Source of the DNA: Spirochaetia bacterium
GTDB lineage: Bacteria; Spirochaetota; Spirochaetia; SZUA-6; Bin103
NCBI GenBank assembly: GCA_965203055.1
Contig: OZ241863.1
Location: forward strand, 1,536,001-1,600,000
Length of the DNA stretch: 64,000 nt
Reading direction: 5' to 3'
Below, in pieces: positions 6,303 to 39,561 of the stretch. The notes below the pieces were generated by a model. That model was given only the letters and a program-made list of their open reading frames with translations. It was not told where the DNA came from and made no database searches. Each line of letters opens with the position of its first letter. Within the stretch, counting starts at the first letter, position 1. The position numbers were made by a program, and so were the translations under genes.

Positions 6303-6941
6303 ATGGAGAAGTCCCCGGCCCGCGTCCCAAGGCGCGAATATGCTTCCGCCCAACGCGAGCACATCCTCAACGCCGCCTCCCGCGTCTTTACCGAGCGCGG
6401 CTACGACCGCGCCACCACCAAGGCGATCGCCGCCGCCGCGGAGCTGTCGGAAGGCGCGCTCTACCATCACTTCTCGGGCAAGCGCGAGATGTTGCTCGGC
6501 GTCCTTGCCCGCGTGATCGGGGCGGTACAGGGGGAGCGCGGCGGCGGCGGCGCGGCCGATCTGTACGAGCGCTACCGGCGCGCCATCAACGTGCGGGTGC
6601 GCGGCGCGCACCCGCAGATGAGAACCTTCTTCGCCCTGCTTTCAGCCATTCTCGCCGACCGCGAACTGGCCGGCCACGTGCGCAGCGAATTGCTGCAGCC
6701 CGGCATCGACAAGGCGGAACGGGCATTGCAGGCGGCCGTCGCCGGCGGCGCCATGCGGCAGATGGACGTCCCGGCGGCGGCCCGGCTGGTGTACGCCATC
6801 TTCATGGGAATCGAGCTGCTGGCGCAGATCGGCGACCAGGAGACGCTGGCCCTGCTGGAGGATGGCGGGCGGCTCGGCGACGCCTTCGCCGGCCTGCTGC
6901 TGGACGGTCTGGCGGCGCGCAGCGGGACCGGGCAGGAGTAG
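6303..6941 (+). CDS. TetR/AcrR family transcriptional regulator
   Basis: ILNAASRVFTERGYDRATTKAIAAAAELSEGALYHHFSGK helix-turn-helix. Confidence 0.9.
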   Translation: MEKSPARVPRREYASAQREHILNAASRVFTERGYDRATTKAIAAAAELSEGALYHHFSGKREMLLGVLARVIGAVQGERGGGGAADLYERYRRAINVRVRGAHPQMRTFFALLSAILADRELAGHVRSELLQPGIDKAERALQAAVAGGAMRQMDVPAAARLVYAIFMGIELLAQIGDQETLALLEDGGRLGDAFAGLLLDGLAARSGTGQE

Positions 6942-6948
6942 CCTCGTT

Positions 6949-7662
6949 TCACATGGCGCCGAGCCGGGCCTTGGCGATCGCCAGCGCGGCGACGCACGCC
7001 GTTTCCACGCGCAGGATGCGCGCGCCGAGGGTGCACGGCAGGAAGCGGTGCCGGCGCAGCACGGCGCGGTCCGCCTCGCTCCAGCCGCGTTCGGGGCCCA
7101 CCGCCAGCACCAGGGGCAGGCGCAACGCGCAGGTTCCGAGGCGCGCCGCGCCCGCGGCGTGGTCCAGGGCGACGGCGGCCGCGCCGGCGGGAAGCTGCCG
7201 CGCCGCGCACTGCAGCGAAGCGCCGCAGGTCACCGCCGGCAGCGCGGTGGCCACTGCCTGCTGCAGCCCGTCCAGCAGGTGGCGGCGCCATTCGGAGGTG
7301 GTCCAGAGCCGGCTGCGGGCATAGTTGCGGTCGCTGGTTTCGGTATGCACGAAGCGCAGCTCGCGGCAGCCGAGCGCCGCCGCCTGATAGAGGATCTTGC
7401 GGGCGCTCGGCGGGCGCGGCAGGCCGACGATCAGCAGGATGTCGTCCGGCGGCGGCGCGGCGCCGTGCCAGTCGAAGGCCAGCTCCAGTTGGTCCGCGGC
7501 GGCCGCCAGCAGCGTGCCGGTGCCGGTTGGACCGTCGATTACGCCGGCTCGGAACCGGTCTCCGGGGCGGCAGCCGAGCACCTCCAACAGGTGGCGCGCG
7601 CGCTGATCGGCCCGCGCCAGGGTCTGCCGGCGCGCGCTGCCGGCGAACAGAATGACGTTCAC
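6949..7662 (-). CDS. rsmE: 16S rRNA m3U1498 methyltransferase RsmE family
   Basis: HLLEVL, LPRP, VGPERGWS..D, LGARILRVETA SPOUT motifs; GTG start at 7662. Confidence 0.85.
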   Translation of the reverse strand: MNVILFAGSARRQTLARADQRARHLLEVLGCRPGDRFRAGVIDGPTGTGTLLAAAADQLELAFDWHGAAPPPDDILLIVGLPRPPSARKILYQAAALGCRELRFVHTETSDRNYARSRLWTTSEWRRHLLDGLQQAVATALPAVTCGASLQCAARQLPAGAAAVALDHAAGAARLGTCALRLPLVLAVGPERGWSEADRAVLRRHRFLPCTLGARILRVETACVAALAIAKARLGAM

Positions 7663-7764
7663 CGAATGACGTTCCCGGCGGGCTCGCGACACCTCACGAC
7701 ACCTACGATACCGCGCGCTTGAGCCGCTCCGCCAGGATGGTCGATGATGGGCAACCGGAGAACC

Positions 7765-8694
7765 ATGCCACAACCGAGCGATCAACCCGCGTTGCACGGC
7801 GTCATCGTGCCGATTCTGACCCCGCTTACCCCCGGCGAAGCGGTGGACGTGCGCTCCTTGCGCCGCCTGGTGAACTACCTCGTGGACAACGGCGTCCATG
7901 GCCTGTGGGCCGCCGGAACCACCGGCGAGTTCGCCGCCCTGGACGAGGCATCGCGGCGGCTGGTCATCGAGACGGTGGCCGAGGAGGCGGGCGGGCGGGT
8001 GCCGGTGATCGGCAACGTCGCCGCCCCGGCGACGCGCGCCGCCGGCGCCGCCGCCGCCGCGCTGCAAGGCTGCCCGCTGGCCGGCGTCGCGGCCACGCCG
8101 CCGTTCTACCACCTCCATTCCCAGGATGAACTGATCGACCATTTTCACGCCGTCGAGGAGCGCAGCCGGCACCCGTTGTGGGTCTACAACATCCCCGGCA
8201 CGGTCGGGCTGACCGTGGAACCGGACACCATCGCCGCGCTGGCGGCCGACGGCACGGTGGCGGGCGTGAAGGACAGCTCCGGCGCCGGCGAGGCGTTCGC
8301 CCAGCTCGTCACGCTGTGCCGGCACCGCCGCCTCGACCTGTACCGCTTCATCGGCACCATCTGGCGCGTCGCCATGGCCGGCAGCGGCGCGCACGGCGTG
8401 ATTCCCGGAGTGGCCAACCTGGCCCCCGCCGGCGCCGCGGCGGCGTGGGAGGCGGGCGCCCGCGGCGACGAGGAGGCCGCTGACCGCCGCCTCGCCGAGG
8501 TGCTCACCGCGGCGCGCGTAATGCAGCTCGGCCGCGGCGGCGGGGCGAGCGTCGCCGGGCTCAAGTCGGCGCTGAAGCTGCTCGGCATCATCGAGCACGA
8601 TACCGCGTCCGCTCCGATGCGGCCCCTCAGCGACGAGGAAAAGTCCCGCCTGCCGCCGCTGCTGGCGCAACTGGGACTCGGCGATTACGGTTGA
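7765..8694 (+). CDS. Dihydrodipicolinate synthase/N-acetylneuraminate lyase family aldolase
   Basis: GTTGEF, YNIP and VKDSS (Schiff-base Lys) motifs; substrate not inferable. Confidence 0.85.
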   Translation: MPQPSDQPALHGVIVPILTPLTPGEAVDVRSLRRLVNYLVDNGVHGLWAAGTTGEFAALDEASRRLVIETVAEEAGGRVPVIGNVAAPATRAAGAAAAALQGCPLAGVAATPPFYHLHSQDELIDHFHAVEERSRHPLWVYNIPGTVGLTVEPDTIAALAADGTVAGVKDSSGAGEAFAQLVTLCRHRRLDLYRFIGTIWRVAMAGSGAHGVIPGVANLAPAGAAAAWEAGARGDEEAADRRLAEVLTAARVMQLGRGGGASVAGLKSALKLLGIIEHDTASAPMRPLSDEEKSRLPPLLAQLGLGDYG

Positions 8695-33413: not shown

Positions 33414-33477
33414 CCTACAGCGGGCCGCCCGAGTCGTCCGCGGCGATCGTCGCGGTCGCCCAGTGCGGGCGTGCTCC

Positions 33478-33506
33478 TTGCTCGCCTTGCTAGAGGGCGA
33501 TATGAT
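33478..33506 (+). promoter_or_regulatory. Putative sigma70 promoter of the SNF2 gene (near-leaderless)
   Basis: TTGCTC - 17 nt - TATGAT, 8 nt before ATG 33515. Confidence 0.5.
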
Positions 33507-33514
33507 GTCCTGTA

Positions 33515-36500
33515 ATGAGCGGAAATGATCTGGTCGTCGGAGCTCTGGTCCAATGGACCGAAGGACAGGGATACGGCGAGGTCACCGGTATCGACGCAAG
33601 ACGGATCAGCGTCCGTTGGGATCATGAAGGTAACCCCCCGCAATTCGCTGCCACGAATCCACCGCTATCGAGGGTCGAATTTTCAGCCGGTCACGTTGTC
33701 CAACTGAGATCGACCAACGAAACCGCCGCCGTCCTCAGTATTGTGACTACTGAGCCTCCGGTTTGGAGTTTGCTCGTTACCGGGCAGCCACCGCGGACTC
33801 TGAACGTGCCGGAAGCAGGCTTGCGCCCGCAATCGATCACAGATCCTGTCGAGCGATTCAAGAGCGGGCACATCGGTTCACTTCAAAAATACCGGCTTCA
33901 GGAAGTAACGAGATGGTATTGGGAGCGGCATCATTACGACGACCTCGTTTCGCTAGGACAGGTTGGTGTAGACCTGAAACCGCATCAGGTTTCGGTGGTT
34001 CACAAGGTAGTCTCCGAGTATCCTCACCGTTTTCTGCTGTGCGACGAAGTCGGTCTGGGAAAGACAATCGAGGCAGGGATGGCACTCAAAGAGCTCCGGT
34101 CCCGCGGAGTAGCTAGACGAGTCCTCGCCATTGTGCCACCTAACCTGATTTTTCAATGGCAATTCGAGATGAAGACCAAGTTCAACGAAATATTCGCTAT
34201 ATTGAATACCGATGTTGTTCGTTTCCTGCAAAATGATAGCGGTTTCAATGACAACCCGTTCACGTACCGAGACAGCGTTTTGTGTTCTGCGGCCTGGGTG
34301 GTTAACGAACCCTGGGCGAGCCAGTGCGCTGCCGCGGATTGGGATCTTGTCATTATCGACGAAGCGCACCATGCGCGAAGCCGCCGTAGCGGAAACAGGA
34401 TAGAGCGTACGCGTCTATACCATTTGGTAAACAAACTTGCGACGATGGAACACTTGACAAGAGGATTGTTGTTCCTCACTGCGACGCCGATGCAGCTCGA
34501 CACTCACGAACTCTACTCCCTCGTAGAACTTCTTGACCCCGCGCTGTTCCCTTCGGAACAACACTTCGACCGCCATCGTACGACAGTTCCTGGTCTCTCT
34601 TATCTCGTCGAACGCCTGTCTCGTCATGGATTTCCATTGCCCGATGAGACAAGGGAGGTAACCGCCCGACAGGTTGGCGAATGGCTTGACATCGACTGCA
34701 ATGAAGCGCATCGACGACTCAACGATTCAAAAGAGCTCAGGAAGCTGACTGAAGATCTGTCGGAACGCCACCTCCTTAGCAAGGTGTTGATTCGCAACCG
34801 AAAAGCCGTAGTGGGCGATTTCGTAACGCGTATCGCCGTGCGCTGGGAGGTCGATCTGACGCCAAAAGAACTCGCTGCACTGAGTGCCGTAAAAGAGTAT
34901 GTGCAGTATGGTTACCAGCTTGCCGAACAACGCAATAACAATGCGGTTGGATTCGCAATGGTTGTATTCCAAAAGTTGATGGCATCCAGCATCGCCGCAA
35001 TTCAGGTTGCATTGAGCAAACGTCGAGAAAAAATAGGTGCCGATTTCGCAGAAGGGCAGTCATATGTTGATCTTCAAGAAAGGCTGGAAGAAGACGACGA
35101 CGCAGCAGATGTCGTCGGAGCCTATGGCCTTGTAGATGAGCAGGCGTTGCTGGATCAGGCTCTCGCAGCACTTGGTGCGGTAGAACGTGACTCCAAGGCT
35201 TGCGTACTTGTTGAGCAAATCAATACGCTGTTCACGCGCCATGAAGCGGGGTCGCATCGGCGTGCTAGCGACCAAGACGACGGCAAGATAATTATCTTCA
35301 CGGAGTTCCGAGAGACTCAGCGCTATCTTCAGCGCCTTCTGGTTGCTCAAGGGTGGGGAGTCAACGTATTTCACGGGCAGCTTGACGCTGTTAGCAAAGA
35401 CCGCGCCGTGGCTCGATTCAGGGACAATGTCGGGCCGCAGGTTCTGATTAGCACCGAAGCGGGAGGAGAGGGGAGAAATTTTCAGTTCTGCCATATGCTT
35501 GTGAATTATGACCTGCCCTGGAACCCGATGCGAATTGAGCAGAGAATCGGACGGGTGGACCGAATTGGTCAGGAACATGTTGTTAAGATTTTCAACTTCG
35601 CGGTAAGGGATACCATCGATATTCGTATTCTCGACGTGTTGGAGCATCGCATTCATGTCTTCCAGGAAACGGTGGGAGGGCTCGATCCTATCCTTGGCGC
35701 GGCCGAGCGAGACCTCAGGAAGATCATGCGTCAGGCCGAGGCACAGAGGGACGCCGCCTTTACCGAGTTTGGTCAACGCGTAGCGGAGCGGATCAGTAGA
35801 GCCCGAGAAGCACGGGAACAACTTGGCAATTTTATCATGGACACCAAGTCATTCCGCAGAGAGATTGTTGAGCGTATTACCGGGCAGCCGTCACCGATCG
35901 ATAACGACCGTATTGAGCGGTTCATCGGAAAACTGCTTGCTAGCGTAGGGACTTACATCAAACGTATGGGCAGCGGCTACCGTCTTACCTTCCACGGCGA
36001 ATTCTATGATACCCACCGGAAGCTGATCCTGGCAGGTGGGAAAAAAATGAACGCAGTGTTTCGGCGTGACCGTCGGCCTGATGAAGAGAGTGTTGAATTC
36101 ATGGCCTTTGGGCATCCGATCGTTGATACGATTGTTCAGCGTATCCTGGAAGAAGGCTATGAGGGAGTGACCGGTACGCGTCGCATCCGTGCGAATGATG
36201 AACTTTCACCTGCCAAAGGATGGCTTTTCAGTTTCCAGTTTACTGTTCCCGGTGTGCAGTCCACTGAACACATAGTACCGGTATTCGTGAACGACGACGG
36301 CCGTGTGGACGACGATGCGGGCCAAGTCATTCTGGATCGTGCATGCGAGTTCGACGATCACGAACAGGAGATACCGTTGCCGAAAATTCCCGATAATCTC
36401 GATAGACTCGAGCCATTGGCGAAAGACGTTGTCAACACCATTCAGCAAAGACTGCAGCGGGATGCCGAGATTAAAGCGGCCGGTCGAATAGATCATGAGG

Positions 36501-36976
36501 TTGCTCGACTCAACACTTGGTTCGACTATCGGGAGCGGGTAGCCAGAGACCGCTTGACCGCTACTCGAGCTACGTTAGATCGTCTTCAGTCGAGCGACGA
36601 CGACTCAGTGCGCCGAATTATTCCTGTTTGGGAGGCAAATCTTCGGCGCGACGAGGCGCTTCCCGATAGGCTCGCGCAGGAGCGCAGGCGCCGGATCGCT
36701 GATATAGAGAGACACCGCCACCCGCAGGTTGCTTGGGCTCTGAAATCGCTAGGCCGCATCGAGATAGTTGCTCCGGCTGAAGGCGAGCGAGGACGTATCA
36801 GTGCGCGGAGGGGCGACGATGGCAGGATTGCGCGGTTGGAACGTGCAGGGACAATAGTACGCCGTTCTTCCGGGAGTCCGCTTGATGTGTTGGGGCAGCC
36901 GGTACGGACGGACGCGAATATCCTGAGCGCGCTGCTGGAGGAGCGCTCCGAAGAATACGAAGAAGGTCATCGGTGA
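33515..36976 (+). CDS. SNF2/RapA-like (DrmD-like) helicase with a C-terminal Phd-antitoxin-like tail
   Basis: LCDEVGLGKT, IIDEAHH, LTATPMQ, TEAGGEGRNFQ, YDLPWNPMRIEQRIGRVDRIGQ; tail RIARLERAG..ILSALLEER; visibly lower GC. Confidence 0.88.
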   Translation: MSGNDLVVGALVQWTEGQGYGEVTGIDARRISVRWDHEGNPPQFAATNPPLSRVEFSAGHVVQLRSTNETAAVLSIVTTEPPVWSLLVTGQPPRTLNVPEAGLRPQSITDPVERFKSGHIGSLQKYRLQEVTRWYWERHHYDDLVSLGQVGVDLKPHQVSVVHKVVSEYPHRFLLCDEVGLGKTIEAGMALKELRSRGVARRVLAIVPPNLIFQWQFEMKTKFNEIFAILNTDVVRFLQNDSGFNDNPFTYRDSVLCSAAWVVNEPWASQCAAADWDLVIIDEAHHARSRRSGNRIERTRLYHLVNKLATMEHLTRGLLFLTATPMQLDTHELYSLVELLDPALFPSEQHFDRHRTTVPGLSYLVERLSRHGFPLPDETREVTARQVGEWLDIDCNEAHRRLNDSKELRKLTEDLSERHLLSKVLIRNRKAVVGDFVTRIAVRWEVDLTPKELAALSAVKEYVQYGYQLAEQRNNNAVGFAMVVFQKLMASSIAAIQVALSKRREKIGADFAEGQSYVDLQERLEEDDDAADVVGAYGLVDEQALLDQALAALGAVERDSKACVLVEQINTLFTRHEAGSHRRASDQDDGKIIIFTEFRETQRYLQRLLVAQGWGVNVFHGQLDAVSKDRAVARFRDNVGPQVLISTEAGGEGRNFQFCHMLVNYDLPWNPMRIEQRIGRVDRIGQEHVVKIFNFAVRDTIDIRILDVLEHRIHVFQETVGGLDPILGAAERDLRKIMRQAEAQRDAAFTEFGQRVAERISRAREAREQLGNFIMDTKSFRREIVERITGQPSPIDNDRIERFIGKLLASVGTYIKRMGSGYRLTFHGEFYDTHRKLILAGGKKMNAVFRRDRRPDEESVEFMAFGHPIVDTIVQRILEEGYEGVTGTRRIRANDELSPAKGWLFSFQFTVPGVQSTEHIVPVFVNDDGRVDDDAGQVILDRACEFDDHEQEIPLPKIPDNLDRLEPLAKDVVNTIQQRLQRDAEIKAAGRIDHEVARLNTWFDYRERVARDRLTATRATLDRLQSSDDDSVRRIIPVWEANLRRDEALPDRLAQERRRRIADIERHRHPQVAWALKSLGRIEIVAPAEGERGRISARRGDDGRIARLERAGTIVRRSSGSPLDVLGQPVRTDANILSALLEERSEEYEEGHR

Positions 36977-37412
36977 ATTTCTGGACACTTCTGGGATCGT
37001 GGCGCTTGTGGTCGATGAGCCACACCAGCCGTTTGCTCGGAGCACTCTCGAAAACGATGACAGGATGGCGGTGTGGTGGGGAGCCTCTGTCGAATACGTT
37101 TCAGCGGTGTCCCGGCGGGTGCGTGAAGGCACCCTGACTGCAGACCAAATCGACCAGCTTGTTCATTACCTCGAGGAACTATCGAGAGAATGGTACGAGA
37201 TTCAGCCCGATTCGAAGATCAGAAAGACAGCTCAGACACTGGTTCGTCGTTATCCGTTGAGAGCCGCGGACGGTCTGCAATTAGCGGCGGCACTCGCCAT
37301 TGCTGAAAGCAATCCGGGGAGTATTGGATTCGTATCCTTCGATAGACGACTGAAAAATGCCGCTGTCCAAGAAGGGTTCGCCGTTCTTGACGGCGAACCG
37401 CCGTCCGAGTGA
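36973..37412 (+). pseudogene. vapC: VapC/PIN toxin with a -1 frameshift after codon 4
   Basis: GTG overlaps the helicase stop (GTGA). GTG AAT TTC TGG [G]AC ACT TCT gives the canonical (M)NFWDTS only if one G is restored at 36983-36984. Downstream VEYVSA..LRAADGLQLAAA..FVSFDRRL are PIN motifs. Confidence 0.8.
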
Positions 37413-37506
37413 CGGACCGATCAAACTCTATGGTAGTATTCTGCCTTCCGTCCGGTCAAGCAGCCAGTTCGACGAAGATGGCGCCCGTCTCGCCGCTGGA
37501 ATCTGC

Positions 37507-38286
37507 CTATTGGTTATTTCGCACGACGCCGGGCTGGTGCTGGTTGGCGCCCATCAGTTGGCGTACCAGTTCCGACGGGTTGTCCAGGTCCGCCAGTTGG
37601 GCGCGCATATCTTCCTGGGTGACGTAGATCGGTCGGGTATACATCCCCAGCAGGGCGCTGCGCGCCGCGTTCGACGTGTTGGGACGGGCGGTATGCCAAG
37701 TGGCCCCATGCATCACCATCACGCTGCCGCGAACGGCCGTCAGTATCTCTCCGTCGGGATGCCAGTCGGAGGCTATCTCCGGCGGTGGACGATGCCCCTT
37801 GCGATGGCTGCAGGGGATGATCCCGGTACCGCCGTTCTCCGCTGAAAAGTCATTCAGCAGCCACATGGTCTGCCCGCTGATGCGGTCGGTCGGCCAGGGT
37901 TGATTGAGCCGCTGATACGGCCAGTCAGGATGCCAGCCGTATCGGGAATAGCCGGGATAGGTGGTATTGGCCGTCCAGGTGGAGCAGATCATGTCTTCGT
38001 CGAGATACCGTCTCCAGATGGCCACGATCAGGGGATGGGACATCAATTCGACGAAGATCGGGTGCTTGACGGCTATCCGCGCAACCCGCTGAGTCTTCTT
38101 CTCGCGGCTGATTTCGCTCTCCTCGTCGGCCAGAAAACGCTCCAGGATGGCGCGCACCCGATCCGCTTTCTCTACCGATATCACCGACGGGATAACGCAG
38201 TAACCGCGTTCATCGAGTTCGGCAATGATTTCCGATACGTCAGACGGACGAACCGACCCCTCATCTGCGATCAAGCTCTGCTCCAT
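37507..38286 (-). CDS. PhyH family dioxygenase
   Basis: WHPDWPY, WLLNDFSAENGGT..IPCSH, TWHTARPN..R. Confidence 0.88.
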   Translation of the reverse strand: MEQSLIADEGSVRPSDVSEIIAELDERGYCVIPSVISVEKADRVRAILERFLADEESEISREKKTQRVARIAVKHPIFVELMSHPLIVAIWRRYLDEDMICSTWTANTTYPGYSRYGWHPDWPYQRLNQPWPTDRISGQTMWLLNDFSAENGGTGIIPCSHRKGHRPPPEIASDWHPDGEILTAVRGSVMVMHGATWHTARPNTSNAARSALLGMYTRPIYVTQEDMRAQLADLDNPSELVRQLMGANQHQPGVVRNNQ

Positions 38287-39407
38287 TCTCGTTCTCCGAC
38301 GCCGGTGGTATCGGCTACCGGTCTGAATTCTCCACGTTTGCCCAGCGAGCGCTGGATTTCGCGGTCGTAGAGGGACGTGAAGGCTTCGGCAATTGGGCTG
38401 TGTCGGAGCTCGAAGGGCTGTGACGCGGACTCGCAGCTCACTTCGCCGGTCGAGTCCCGGTATAGTGCGTGGAAGCGTACTTCGTCGCCCTCCTCTATGA
38501 GCAGCTCCAACTCCTTCAAGACCGCGTAGTCATGGGTAGCTATCAGGATCTGGACACCCGAGCGTTGCAACTGCAGCAGAATATCGACGACGACGGTCAG
38601 GAGGCCGGGATTGAGATTCGCCTCCGGCTCGTCCCAGAACAGGACCGAGCCGCTCGGCAGTGAGCCGTTGCGAACCAGCAGCCAAAGAAGACCGAGCTTG
38701 CGCAGACCCTCAGCGAGCAACATGAACTCAATCTTGCTGTTGCCGTTCTCGACGAATAATTCCTCTCCTTCATCCGTCACCCTGCCTCCTATCGCGGCCT
38801 CAAGACGCTTCTCGATCCGCCTGACGGCATTCGTCCTCTTACGCAACGGCGGTAGATAGGCGCGGTCTATGATGTCGGAGTAGATCTCCTCTACGTGGAT
38901 CTCATGCTGTTTGTAAAGTGAACGGAATCCTGGTGCATTAGAGAGTATTTCCTTGGCCGGAATGAACGTGCTTTTGACAACCTCTTCGGGCCAATTAAGT
39001 TTCGCAAAGGAGCCCATTCGTCTGGCCTCGTCGGATACGGGAAAACGTAATCTGAGGCTGCCGCGCCACACTTCAACGATTGCTTGACGATCTTCACTTG
39101 GATGTCTTACCAAACGTTGAATACTGTTTCGAGACGGCAAGAAAACTCGAACGAGCTTGTGATAGAAGGGTCCTTCCGGACCCATCACGTAATCGATATT
39201 GGTTGTCTTGAATTCACATGCCGCGTAGGCAACCTTGAGGAGATGCGTCTTACCGGTTCCGTTGGCGCCAATGAATACGTTTATGCCTGGGCCGAGCTTC
39301 AGATCGAGTTGCTCGAACGCCGTGAACCGTTCAAGGACGATGCGCGTCAACGGAGGAGCGTGCTTTGAGCTTGGCAAGCGAGGGGCATTCTTGACTTCAT
39401 TTTGCAT
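38271..39407 (-). CDS. ABC-type AAA ATPase (AAA_15/AAA_21; defence-associated class)
   Basis: GANGTGKT, LAEGLRKL, FWDEPEANLNP, ATHD; lower GC. Confidence 0.85.
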   Translation of the reverse strand: MQNEVKNAPRLPSSKHAPPLTRIVLERFTAFEQLDLKLGPGINVFIGANGTGKTHLLKVAYAACEFKTTNIDYVMGPEGPFYHKLVRVFLPSRNSIQRLVRHPSEDRQAIVEVWRGSLRLRFPVSDEARRMGSFAKLNWPEEVVKSTFIPAKEILSNAPGFRSLYKQHEIHVEEIYSDIIDRAYLPPLRKRTNAVRRIEKRLEAAIGGRVTDEGEELFVENGNSKIEFMLLAEGLRKLGLLWLLVRNGSLPSGSVLFWDEPEANLNPGLLTVVVDILLQLQRSGVQILIATHDYAVLKELELLIEEGDEVRFHALYRDSTGEVSCESASQPFELRHSPIAEAFTSLYDREIQRSLGKRGEFRPVADTTGVGEREWSRA

Positions 39408-39561
39408 ATTTTCTCTCCGGGATCAGCGTAAGATCGGAAGCGCATCGCCTCGGCGAAGATCTCCAGGGCGGCGCCGTGATCGCCTGCTCCCAGGGCGACA
39501 ACGCCACCGCCACCCTGGGCGGAGAAGCGCATGTGGTTGGCGGTTTCACCGGGTGTGTCCG

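Follow-up and report, generated by a model that had tools for sequence, protein, structure and literature searches.

We analyzed a window of 64,000 nucleotides (1.536 to 1.600 Mb of the genome) from a Spirochaetia bacterium. The window carries an inserted low-GC island of four genes (33414 to 39450; 52 to 62% GC in 500-base bins, compared with 67 to 76% in the flanks), bordered by genes for an ABC-transporter ATPase and for a phosphohexomutase. A rearranged version of this island occupies the same chromosomal site in a congener, G010. On the plus strand, the island contains a single open reading frame (ORF) of 1,153 codons (33515 to 36976), whose product ends in WALKSLGRIEIVAPAEGERGRISARRGDDGRIARLERAGTIVRRSSGSPLDVLGQPVRTDANILSALLEERSEEYEEGHR, followed by a pseudogene for VapC, a PIN-domain toxin (36973 to 37412). 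The other two genes form a minus-strand pair with a 16-base overlap. One encodes an ABC-type ATPase of 378 amino acids (38271 to 39407; AAA_21, E = 2.8e-18), and the second encodes a PhyH-family 2OG-Fe(II) dioxygenase of 259 amino acids (37507 to 38286; PF05721, E = 1.2e-21). The ATPase matched the PADLOC model HEC-02A (PDLC04213) at 1.9e-111 over profile positions 3 to 335 of 337. HEC-02 is described in a passage of its source as the ABC ATPase HEC-02A together with the NERD-domain protein HEC-02B (10.1101/2024.01.29.577857); here, the operon partner is the PhyH dioxygenase and not a NERD protein. The dioxygenase gene has no PADLOC match and is 85% identical in DNA to its counterpart at the G010 locus, and its membership in the module described below is only putative.

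The first 1,085 residues of the long ORF (33515 to 36769, ending in GRIEIV) constitute a Swi2/Snf2 (SNF2) helicase, as judged from Pfam, NCBIfam, and PADLOC. A Tudor-like N terminus is followed by a core with GLGKT and DEAH motifs and by a RapA_C-like C-terminal region. Pfam matches were strong for the core (SNF2-rel_dom, 1.7e-17; Helicase_C, 1.5e-20) and weak for RapA_C and Tudor_1_RapA. The best PADLOC matches were to BrxHI|BrxHII (2.7e-107), DrmD (2.3e-73), and HmaA (4.7e-73), which assigns the protein by similarity to a defense-type, RapA/BrxHII-like group of SNF2 helicases and bears out the relationship to RapA- and DrmD-like proteins proposed in a preliminary description of this DNA. In the NCBIfam scan, it fell below every curated cutoff. 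Identity with RapA itself (NF003426) was rejected at 369.8 bits against a cutoff of 576, with residues 18 to 451 alone aligned; true RapA genes of Gammaproteobacteria are 28 to 32% identical to the helicase. DISARM DrmD was likewise rejected, at 324.4 bits against a cutoff of 610 and with no DISARM partner, such as DrmA, DrmB, or a methylase, among the four genes of the island.

The same layout of Tudor-like N terminus, Swi2/Snf2 core, and RapA_C-like region is found in RapA, in BrxHII of type 3 BREX, and in the helicases of DUF499-centered "BR" (Hma) systems, according to passages of PMC12839542. Despite the resemblance to BrxHII and HmaA, we rejected membership in type 3 BREX or BR (Hma), whose loci combine the helicase with an N6-methyltransferase and with either a DUF499 or a BrxC ATPase. 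The island contains no DUF499 ATPase, methyltransferase, or PglZ gene, and the four DUF499 matches of the genome lie at 1.11, 1.23, 2.35, and 4.43 Mb, all beyond the window. A scan of 47 ORFs from 13 loci identified no recurring defense partner near the helicase; its neighbors were heterogeneous and often housekeeping genes.

To locate the natural end of the helicase, we searched residues 701 to 1153 against 1.84 billion representative proteins. Full-length relatives (P0031, P0033, P0034, P0037, P0046, P0054, P0068, and others) aligned with query positions 2 to 384 or 388 and stopped there, at approximately residues 1084 to 1088. The natural end is thus GRIEIV at base 36769, where the preliminary description had placed it (~36770), and the relatives themselves extend only 0 to 20 residues beyond GRIE(V/I)V. 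What follows in our ORF is a linker, APAEGERGRISARRG (residues 1086 to 1100; 36770 to 36814), and then a segment of 53 residues, DDGRIARLERAGTIVRR..ILSALLEERSEEYEEGHR (residues 1101 to 1153; 36815 to 36973), both delimited in alignment A3. Contigs that encode stand-alone forms of this segment, 74 amino acids long, match the window from 36815 onwards only, and the fusion junction lies within or beside the linker.

The final ~53 residues share homology with the C-terminal halves of Phd/YefM-type antitoxins that are 97 to 108 amino acids long. In a search with the tail, 16 of 22 candidate proteins of 40 to 130 amino acids matched at E ≤ 0.01. Full-length relatives (P0004 to P0016; 97 to 123 amino acids) aligned through their C-terminal halves only, and one relative carries the NCBI name prevent-host-death family antitoxin. 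Where PF02604 was detected on relatives, it covered the N-terminal half; that domain (MIRATISEVK..ARIVPV) is absent from our protein, and the helicase stands in its place. The tail by itself matched nothing in Pfam or NCBIfam, and its family profile gave weak matches to VapB46 and VapB5 of Mycobacterium tuberculosis. By homology, then, the tail is the toxin-binding, neutralizing half of a Phd/YefM-type VapB antitoxin, in line with the earlier identification of a Phd/VapB C-terminal half. Lacking the N-terminal dimerization and DNA-binding domain, it should be incapable of operator binding and autoregulation.

The helicase stop codon (TGA, 36974 to 36976) overlaps the vapC start codon (GTG, 36973 to 36975) in the sequence GTGA (36973 to 36976), as noted before, and AAGG lies 6 bases upstream. 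Stand-alone antitoxin relatives have the same arrangement (L008 to L015), which is the usual layout for translational coupling, so that coupling may be inferred here as well. All 10 of the stand-alone relatives that were fetched (L006 to L015) have a downstream VapC starting with (V/M)(N/T)F(W/R)DTS, placed at the antitoxin stop in 8 of them. The gene behind our tail is accordingly assigned by homology to the cognate type of VapC. Its PIN frame (36975 to 37412) is open apart from the start region (PF01850, E = 4.9e-07) and encodes all four acidic positions, of which D5, E41, and D124 were invariant and D100 nearly invariant across 38 VapC relatives; 92 relatives matched at E ≤ 1e-10.

However, as an intact, translatable toxin gene, vapC fails in the window. 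Relatives begin VNFWDTS.., and the window reads GTG AAT TTC TGG ACA, one G short: a run of three G's in relatives is reduced to GG (36983 to 36984), which shifts the frame after codon 4. Because this 1-base deletion falls at codon 5, any vapC product would lose the first catalytic aspartate. Intact VapC proteins that are 90 to 98% identical (P0178, P0271, and P0272) begin MNFWDTSGIV, and the extra G behind 36982 was present in contigs from all three nonidentical sequencing runs (X1, X2, and X9) and absent from run X7. The frameshift is private to the window genome, and the toxin appears to have been recently inactivated; here, vapC is dead, with the module presumably disarmed and the tail a relic.

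A mis-assembly or sequencing error could in principle have joined two ORFs, with the frameshift a homopolymer error. The deletion does lie in a short G run, the assembly is a single contig of metagenome type, and run X7 was inspected as contigs and not as raw reads. Yet the independently built X7 contig (depth, 155.6), which possibly comes from the source of the assembly, has the same GG and no differences over 1,101 bases, and five other proteins in the database share this fused ORF. One of these (P0017) is identical to ours at 1,113 of 1,153 positions without gaps, and four more members of its cluster (P0020 to P0023) carry the tail in frame. Contigs of X1 (9,498 bases), X2, and X9, from three other studies, span the helicase end, tail, and vapC, and the junction is preserved in the G010 remnant. 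We regard an artifact as extremely unlikely, and the recurrence argues that the fusion did not arise by chance. Substitutions between the window and X1 were mostly synonymous in the tail (5 synonymous, 1 nonsynonymous) and in vapC (5 and 2; against X9, 7 and 2), indicating that relatives keep the fusion and an intact vapC under purifying selection. The fusion is therefore not unique to this assembly, which leaves standing, on that ground, the earlier suggestion that the helicase carries the antitoxin and releases the RNase; the frameshift is what sets this genome apart.

Complex modeling, which had been suggested in the preliminary description, placed the tail over the VapC active site. The tail-VapC model reached an ipSAE of 0.78, compared with 0.00 for the best of three controls, with agreement between runs in at least 94% of contacts and a partner pLDDT of at least 68. 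Of 157 solved complexes, 116 attained the mark that it passed, as did 2 of 215 mismatched pairs. Contacts involved tail-query residues 22 to 65 (protein residues 1101 to 1144) and VapC residues 6 to 7, 99 to 100, and 123 to 124, beside the catalytic acids. This predicted placement may reflect likeness to the solved VapBC-5 complex (3dbo).

The peptide might instead be made separately, from an internal start within the 3′-terminal part of the helicase frame or by cleavage, in which case the apparent fusion would be a frame overlap with no tether. Such a start could be the in-frame TTG that encodes the L of ARLERAG, which has AGGA 8 bases before it, and stand-alone forms of 53 to 74 amino acids exist (P0001, P0003, and P0012). 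Against this, neither the VapC-type tail nor the ParE-type tail described below has a conserved in-frame ATG. No plus-strand promoter-like site was found in the ORF, although the scan was weak (four sites compared with 2.7 expected, all on the minus strand). The linker stays in frame across variants that are 92 to 97% identical and in 11 ParE-type genomes. Even with an internal start, moreover, the full-length protein would still bear the peptide. We consider separate production of the antitoxin very unlikely.

Helicase orthologs in Dehalococcoidia end in another antitoxin-like tail, one that is linked to a ParE toxin. There, the helicase ends in ..GRIEVV and continues into a tail of ~50 amino acids (DPDxGLELR..LGLSW), whose stop overlaps the ParE gene (PF05016, 1.8e-10); stand-alone antitoxins with the same C-terminal end were identified (L105, L106, L127, and L128). 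In a sample of 301 genomes from the order, the helicase clade was present in 21 genomes, 11 of which had both tail and ParE. Estimates of dN/dS were 0.07 to 0.29 for the tail (6 of 10 pairs with computable dS) and 0.09 to 0.33 for ParE (9 of 10 pairs); synonymous sites were saturated in this comparison. The helicase clade carries two independent fusions that share neither tail nor toxin type, and the second lends further support to the earlier suggestion of a helicase that gates its toxin. Tail-less helicases are also common: 6 of the 21 in the order sample, 4 of another subclade, and further examples elsewhere (L019, L021 to L023, L025, L026, L030, and G003).

Tail and toxin also survive without the helicase. 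In G012, the helicase start region is joined in frame to RLERAG, so that the tail stays translated; ParE-type counterparts (L101 and L122) have lost the helicase and kept the tail in frame; and the 74-amino-acid VapC-type forms (P0001, P0003, and P0024) have a start codon of their own. Continued translation of the tail in such derivatives is expected if it is a working antitoxin. In other genomes the module has decayed: the vapC genes of G010 and G012 are dead remnants, and in L100/L119 there is a stop within ParE and the helicase is cut.

Could these loci be remnants of selfish addiction, with no role in sensing or defense? A Phd-VapC cassette (elsewhere, ParD-like/ParE) would have landed behind a helicase gene and the front half of the antitoxin would have been deleted. 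Since other outcomes free the toxin, the only survivors would be those joined in frame to an ORF that lies upstream and is expressed; the helicase would be merely the nearest expressed gene, and the pair would decay once the toxin mutates, as it has here. The frameshift in the window, the decayed remnants in G010, G012, and L100, and the many tail-less helicases of the clade all fit this account. So does the presence of the tail on other upstream frames, start codons, or partners (the 74-amino-acid forms, L101, L122, and L126), which implies that tail and toxin can do without the helicase. A chromosomal pair kept by addiction alone, however, should quickly lose its toxin, whereas VapC-type toxins are intact in three studies, and the ParE type persists in 11 of 21 helicase-bearing genomes with saturation at synonymous sites and dN/dS well below 1 for tail and toxin. 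Nor would addiction readily explain two independent fusions within a single helicase clade. On this evidence, we judge selfish addiction to be somewhat unlikely. The preliminary description had raised a related idea, an accidental fusion followed by selection for toxin inactivation; it suits the window genome, with its dead vapC, and the G010 and G012 remnants, but as a general account it sits poorly with the conservation of fused modules over the long term.

We think it probable that this is a chimeric module of the type II toxin-antitoxin class, with its neutralizing peptide tethered to a RapA/BrxHII-like helicase, functional in relatives and recently inactivated here, with a guard or abortive-infection role favored. 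Under this tethering model, a Phd/YefM-type antitoxin would have lost its N-terminal domain, promoter, and start codon, and its C-terminal peptide would have been grafted in frame onto the helicase. Ribosomes that have just finished the tail would translate the toxin by way of the GTGA overlap, and the tail would capture VapC and cover the PIN active site, so that each toxin molecule is held tethered and silent on a helicase molecule. If supply of the full-length protein stopped, if that protein were degraded, or if the tail were pulled off, the RNase would be freed and the cell arrested; this could be set off by a nonsense mutation, by loss of the island, by phage shutoff of host expression, by a phage inhibitor, or by engagement of the motor. 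The favored guard or abortive-infection role would rest on this dependence of the toxin on the helicase-tail protein. The premises of the model as first put forward, namely, tail homology, a missing N-terminal domain, and a defense-type helicase, have held, and release upon sensing of invading DNA is at present a proposal. More tentatively, helicases of this clade might sense infection or damage, having captured unrelated antitoxin peptides (Phd-type with VapC, ParD-like with ParE) on repeated occasions, and might release the toxin upon engagement, inhibition, or destruction of the motor, an extension that we view as possible but short of probable.

Like canonical type II VapBC modules (VapBC-5, PDB 3dbo; VapB46, 6jqy), the locus encodes a PIN toxin with four acidic positions and, just upstream, a homologous antitoxin C-terminal peptide that overlaps the toxin start and, in the model, lies over the active site. 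Unlike them, it has no small stand-alone antitoxin with an N-terminal Phd/YefM domain: the final 53 residues of a 1,153-residue helicase supply the peptide, which needs the promoter and start codon of the helicase gene. Other nucleases are reportedly held silent by motor or ATPase proteins, including PrrC on EcoprrI, HamA on the HamB helicase (Hachiman), and AriB on AriA (PARIS). Our locus resembles these in the proposed inactivity of an RNase through association with a DNA motor, but the proposed holder is a borrowed type II antitoxin peptide and not a dedicated interface, and release upon infection is only proposed. CapRel SJ46 is said to be a single-chain fused toxin-antitoxin. As in that protein and in EzeT, the antitoxin element lies covalently within a larger protein, but there toxin and antitoxin are joined to each other, whereas at our locus a third protein bears the antitoxin and the toxin remains separate. 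EzeT is described in passages of PMC4826407 as a single-chain toxin-antitoxin fusion. In Pez-Ham, passages of PMC13064477 describe toxin-antitoxin genes that are separate and act through repression of expression, a route closed to a tail without a DNA-binding domain. Passages of PMC12839542 on BREX and BR describe "embedded" PIN, HEPN, and RelE genes that serve as separate backup effectors and do not describe an antitoxin peptide on the helicase. We found no description of a helicase-tethered antitoxin tail in print. Together with the separate ParE-type acquisition in the same helicase family, the locus suggests a so-far-undescribed way of wiring a toxin to a motor protein.

The usual picture of a type II antitoxin is that of a small, labile protein that regulates itself. 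In our locus, the neutralizing half alone sits on a DNA motor of 1,100 residues, and grafting of this kind has occurred two times within the helicase clade, each time with a different toxin; one form has been kept across many species. Because tails like this one are invisible to Pfam and NCBIfam, the toxins of such loci are annotated as orphans. Deletions that removed the helicase in frame but spared the tail form a natural record of addiction in action. A functional tether would offer a simple model for wiring a toxin-antitoxin pair to a sensor, one in which toxin supply can hang on the integrity of a neighboring gene. The locus is also a natural system for asking what orphan RapA/BrxHII-like defense helicases detect. 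Should these helicases indeed act as sensors that capture antitoxin peptides, they would open a modular, plug-in path from ordinary toxin-antitoxin cassettes to abortive-infection systems gated by a helicase.

The helicase gene opens a 6-kb island (~33.4 to 39.45 kb) whose GC content is 52 to 62%, compared with ~67 to 76% in the genome. The first of its four genes, on the forward strand at 33515 to 36976, is a 1153-aa ORF comprising an SNF2 helicase and a C-terminal tail, and it is followed directly by a PIN-domain gene (vapC; PF01850) on the same strand, with the PIN frame at 36975 to 37412. The two other genes lie on the reverse strand and overlap by 16 bases: a PhyH-family dioxygenase gene (37507 to 38286) and an ABC-type ATPase gene (38271 to 39407) whose product fits HEC-02A, a candidate-defense model of PADLOC, from end to end (1.9e-111). 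As HEC-02 is described (10.1101/2024.01.29.577857), the ATPase is paired with a NERD nuclease, whereas the partner here is a PhyH-family 2OG-Fe(II) dioxygenase. The pair at 37507 to 39407 may be a variant two-gene module; its PhyH gene is kept at the same site in a congeneric genome, G010, with 85% DNA identity. A scan of the island for promoters and terminators returned nothing informative.

Judged by its domains, the 1153-aa ORF is a Swi2/Snf2 helicase, with Pfam matches to SNF2-rel_dom (1.7e-17) and Helicase_C (1.5e-20) and weak matches to RapA_C and the RapA Tudor domain. NCBIfam ranked RapA, DrmD, and DpdE highest, with every score under the curated cut-off, while the top PADLOC ranks were BrxHI/BrxHII (2.7e-107), DrmD, and HmaA. 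We mapped the end of the helicase by searching residues 701 to 1153 against 1.84 billion representative proteins, which yielded 306 C-region relatives at E ≤ 0.001. Among the best 150 of the 306, full-length relatives (1063 to 1113 aa) aligned to query positions 2 to 384/388 and then stopped; their natural end is ..GRIE(I/V)V plus 0 to 20 residues. Therefore, the helicase proper ends at about residue 1085 (base 36769), where the preliminary description had also placed it, and the 68 further residues are extra. The nearest relatives (38 to 63% identity) come mostly from metagenome genomes of Dehalococcoidia and other Chloroflexota, and matches at 28 to 32% identity are true RapA proteins of Gammaproteobacteria. 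An apparent alignment of the database protein P0048 through the tail was rejected. Its extension is a different conserved C-terminal domain of 125 to 140 aa, not an antitoxin, that is common to P0048, P0055, P0056, P0063, P0070, and P0145 in another branch of the helicase family (pattern ..QR..LRGA.DYF....D...DL....GF.DD..VV..VL.AI..) and has no match in Pfam.

Related helicases occur in other settings. A copy in G003, of the same genus (L108), is 64% identical, carries an internal TAG, and ends in ..GRIEVVAPVAAAGTRAPGTRFR; it has neither an antitoxin tail nor a toxin gene downstream. In a distant subclade (L024, L027, L028, and L160 to L163; 36 to 46% identity), a second helicase-like protein of 1140 to 1244 aa always follows with overlapping stop and start; it bears Helicase_C or, in L024, AAA_30/UvrD_C_2. 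This pair looks like a two-helicase module, and genes of the restriction type, such as an AspBHI-like one and a C5 methylase with Vsr, are among its neighbors. At least a dozen SNF2-type helicase loci lie outside the window in the organism's own genome. Its four DUF499 ATPase genes (1.11, 1.23, 2.35, and 4.43 Mb) each lie 6 to 23 kb from such a locus, and several Hma/BR-like systems are therefore likely elsewhere in this genome.

The extra C-terminal residues had been read as the neutralizing half of an antitoxin, a reading that the database searches bore out. When the last 74 residues were used as a query, 16 of the 22 candidate proteins were found at E ≤ 0.01. Full-length relatives of the tail (P0004 to P0016; 97 to 123 aa) begin with MIRATISEVK..GESVLV..RTPIARIVPV, and this N-terminal half, which matches Pfam PhdYeFM_antitox weakly, is absent from the window protein. 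Four of them carry a precomputed PhdYeFM_antitox label, and one is named "prevent-host-death family antitoxin" by NCBI. Their C-terminal halves (..ARLERAG.VVRRGSGSPLDVLGQP.R....L.ALLEER..) align with residues 1101 to 1153 of the window protein. Pfam and NCBIfam returned no match for the tail alone; a profile of the family gave weak matches to the solved structures of Mycobacterium tuberculosis VapB46 and VapB5. At the level of sequence, these comparisons show that the helicase reads in frame into the C-half of an antitoxin. Species genomes supplied 10 stand-alone loci (L006 to L015), and all have a VapC starting (V/M)(N/T)F(W/R)DTS behind the antitoxin, and in 8 of the 10 the VapC starts at the antitoxin stop codon.

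We also modeled the 74-residue tail (alignment of 20 relatives) together with an intact natural VapC, P0272 (alignment of 38). The complex reached an ipSAE of 0.78 (0.76, 0.78, and 0.80 in three runs), compared with 0.00 for the best control. When the method was calibrated, 116 of 157 solved complexes attained this mark, as did 2 of 215 mismatched pairs. Contact agreement between runs was ≥94%, and the partner pLDDT was ≥68. In the model, tail residues 22 to 65 (protein residues 1101 to 1144) contact VapC residues adjoining the catalytic acids. Because a similar complex, VapBC-5, has already been solved, the model shows a likeness to a known mode of neutralization rather than binding by this copy.

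The toxin gene overlaps the stop of the helicase-tail ORF: the TGA at 36974 to 36976 shares bases with a GTG at 36973 to 36975. Reading on from this GTG, the window has GTG AAT TTC TGG ACA.., one G fewer than the GTG AAT TTC TGG GAC of its relatives. The PIN frame (36975 to 37412), which is not the frame of the GTG, matches PF01850, and none of the four conserved acidic positions is missing from it. The closest database VapCs (P0178, P0271, and P0272) are 90 to 98% identical, start with MNFWDTSGIV, and are intact. Were translation to reinitiate at the in-frame GTG (36999), the resulting VapC would lack the invariant D5. Rescue from a non-canonical ATC start at 36969, possible in principle, was rejected, as the start codon of the relatives is the GTG, which the window has in the wrong frame. 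The toxin is disarmed in this genome.

A search for longer tail-bearing proteins recovered the 1153-aa P0017, which is identical to the window ORF at 1113 of 1153 positions without gaps, and its 90% cluster has four more members, all with the tail in frame. We compared Logan contigs of four sequencing runs over 36400 to 37500. The near-identical run X7, possibly from the source sample, has a contig with no differences and so has the same GG; that this is a consensus error is unlikely, judging from contigs, at its depth of 155.6. Contigs from three other studies (X1, X2, and X9) span the helicase end, tail, and vapC, with those of X2 leaving 37177 to 37500 uncovered, and all three carry an additional G after 36982 that leaves vapC intact. 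Therefore, the fusion extends beyond this lineage, to which the frameshift is confined. The preliminary description had set a fusion unique to this assembly and a real vapC frameshift as grounds against its model of a helicase that releases the RNase; the fusion is not unique, and relatives have an intact vapC. We infer the pairing of P0021 with P0178 and of P0017 with P0272 from equal-sized contigs (22965 and 9498) and an X1 contig of 9498 b. Between the window and X1, there are five synonymous and one nonsynonymous changes in the tail and five and two in vapC; against X9, vapC differs by seven and two. Until recently, then, purifying selection acted on the tail and the toxin alike.

A second type of fusion involves ParE. 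In L018 and L020, the helicase runs ~50 residues beyond ..GRIEVV (..DPDAGLELREEFSAELQASLEA..VAQRLGLSW), and the gene for an 89-aa ParE toxin (PF05016, 1.8e-10) starts within its stop codon overlap. The same architecture was present among fetched ParE relatives in L099, L102, and L103 and decayed in L100. Stand-alone 70-aa antitoxins upstream of ParE (L105 and L106) share the ending ..DPDYGLELRPDVEAALKKSL..VEKVAAELGLKW, so the ParE-type tail also exists as the C-terminal portion of an antitoxin that stands free and is unrelated to the Phd type. Pfam matched neither the L105 antitoxin nor the L018 and L020 tails. We sampled 301 genomes of the order around the one that carries L018, and 21 of them had the helicase clade: 11 with tail and ParE (1 decayed), 6 tail-less, and 4 of the distant subclade, these 4 with a second large helicase-like gene behind the helicase. 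Several sampled genomes are those of the L098 to L104 loci, so the two sets together amount to 12 distinct genomes. Synonymous sites are saturated among five ParE-type genomes; dN/dS could be computed for the tail in 6 of 10 pairs (0.07 to 0.29), for ParE in 9 of 10 (0.09 to 0.33), and for the helicase C-region in 5 of 10 (0.07 to 0.12). In a tree of 31 helicase C-regions (L108, L022, and L026 were left out as too short), VapC-type helicases formed their own clade (100/100), and ParE-type and tail-less ones were intermixed on a backbone without resolution that makes ParE-tail gains and losses uncountable.

Derivatives without the helicase were also found. At the same chromosomal site in G010, flanked by the same ABC-transporter genes (82 to 87% DNA identity) and PhyH gene (85%), a remnant consists of a few helicase-end codons, a junction of equal length, the tail (75% DNA identity), and an inactivated vapC, with a methyltransferase-like gene behind it. 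The ~1.9 kb between this remnant and the PhyH gene (L113, G010:C1:810000-824000, ~6600 to 8500) encode a methyltransferase-like protein (..ILEPSCGDGAFL..) absent from the window, and the locus resembles a hot spot where defense-type genes are exchanged. In G012, of another genus, the helicase start region and about nine codons lead in frame into the tail at RLERAG, and the vapC behind is decayed. Forms of 74 aa, on up to 16 contigs and including P0001, P0003, and P0024, start with MMIFMNG.ED.., recalling the MMSPVMNGTDL start of the helicase P0022, and are 81 to 85% identical in the tail part. Their contigs match the window only over 36815 to 36955, and a metagenome contig scan with P0024 found no relative. 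Three loci (L101, L122, and L126) keep the ParE-type tail, which is ParD-like, and ParE behind other upstream frames, of 332 aa in L122 (G324) and 186 aa in L126 (G243). L122 retains a piece of the helicase-type linker (ELVEDPDELELRE), which suggests that its tail-toxin unit moved from a helicase to another gene. Helicase loss through joins that keep the tail translated would be expected under an active toxin.

The module has the toxin, neutralizing segment, and gene order of a VapBC pair, but it lacks the small autoregulating antitoxin and, in this genome, an intact toxin. As described in PMC12839542, the RapA/BrxHII helicase architecture is that of type 3 BREX and DUF499-centered BR (Hma) systems. 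Neither a DUF499 ATPase nor a methylase lies in the island, the genome's four DUF499 matches being elsewhere, and membership in DISARM, BREX/BR, or Hma was rejected on absent partners and scores under cut-offs. Hma and BREX loci also have "embedded" PIN and RelE genes, which are presented as effectors in their own right (PMC12839542; 10.1101/2024.01.29.577857), and a toxin-antitoxin pair adjoining Hachiman acts as a repressor (PMC13064477). Searches of full-text literature turned up no antitoxin peptide fused to a helicase; the supplementary neighborhood tables of PMC12839542 might list such loci.

We propose that coupled translation would produce the toxin and that the tail would then capture it, keeping it inactive on the helicase. 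Because the antitoxin DNA-binding domain is absent, there would be no autoregulation, and antitoxin supply would be tied to the expression and integrity of the entire helicase ORF. Loss, shut-off, degradation, or displacement of the helicase-tail protein would then free the toxin. PrrC-EcoprrI, HamAB, and AriAB offer analogies for this logic. The helicase-antitoxin tail with VapC that the preliminary description noted is confirmed, and its interpretation is supported in part: the fusion is genuine, occurs in relatives as well, and was functional in the past. The sensor role that it assigned to the helicase stays a proposal, and the full sensor model is one we put forward tentatively. A guard or abortive-infection role is favored, although a purely addictive remnant is judged almost as probable as the full sensor model. 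The independent ParE-type fusion adds interest to the finding of a helicase joined to an antitoxin.
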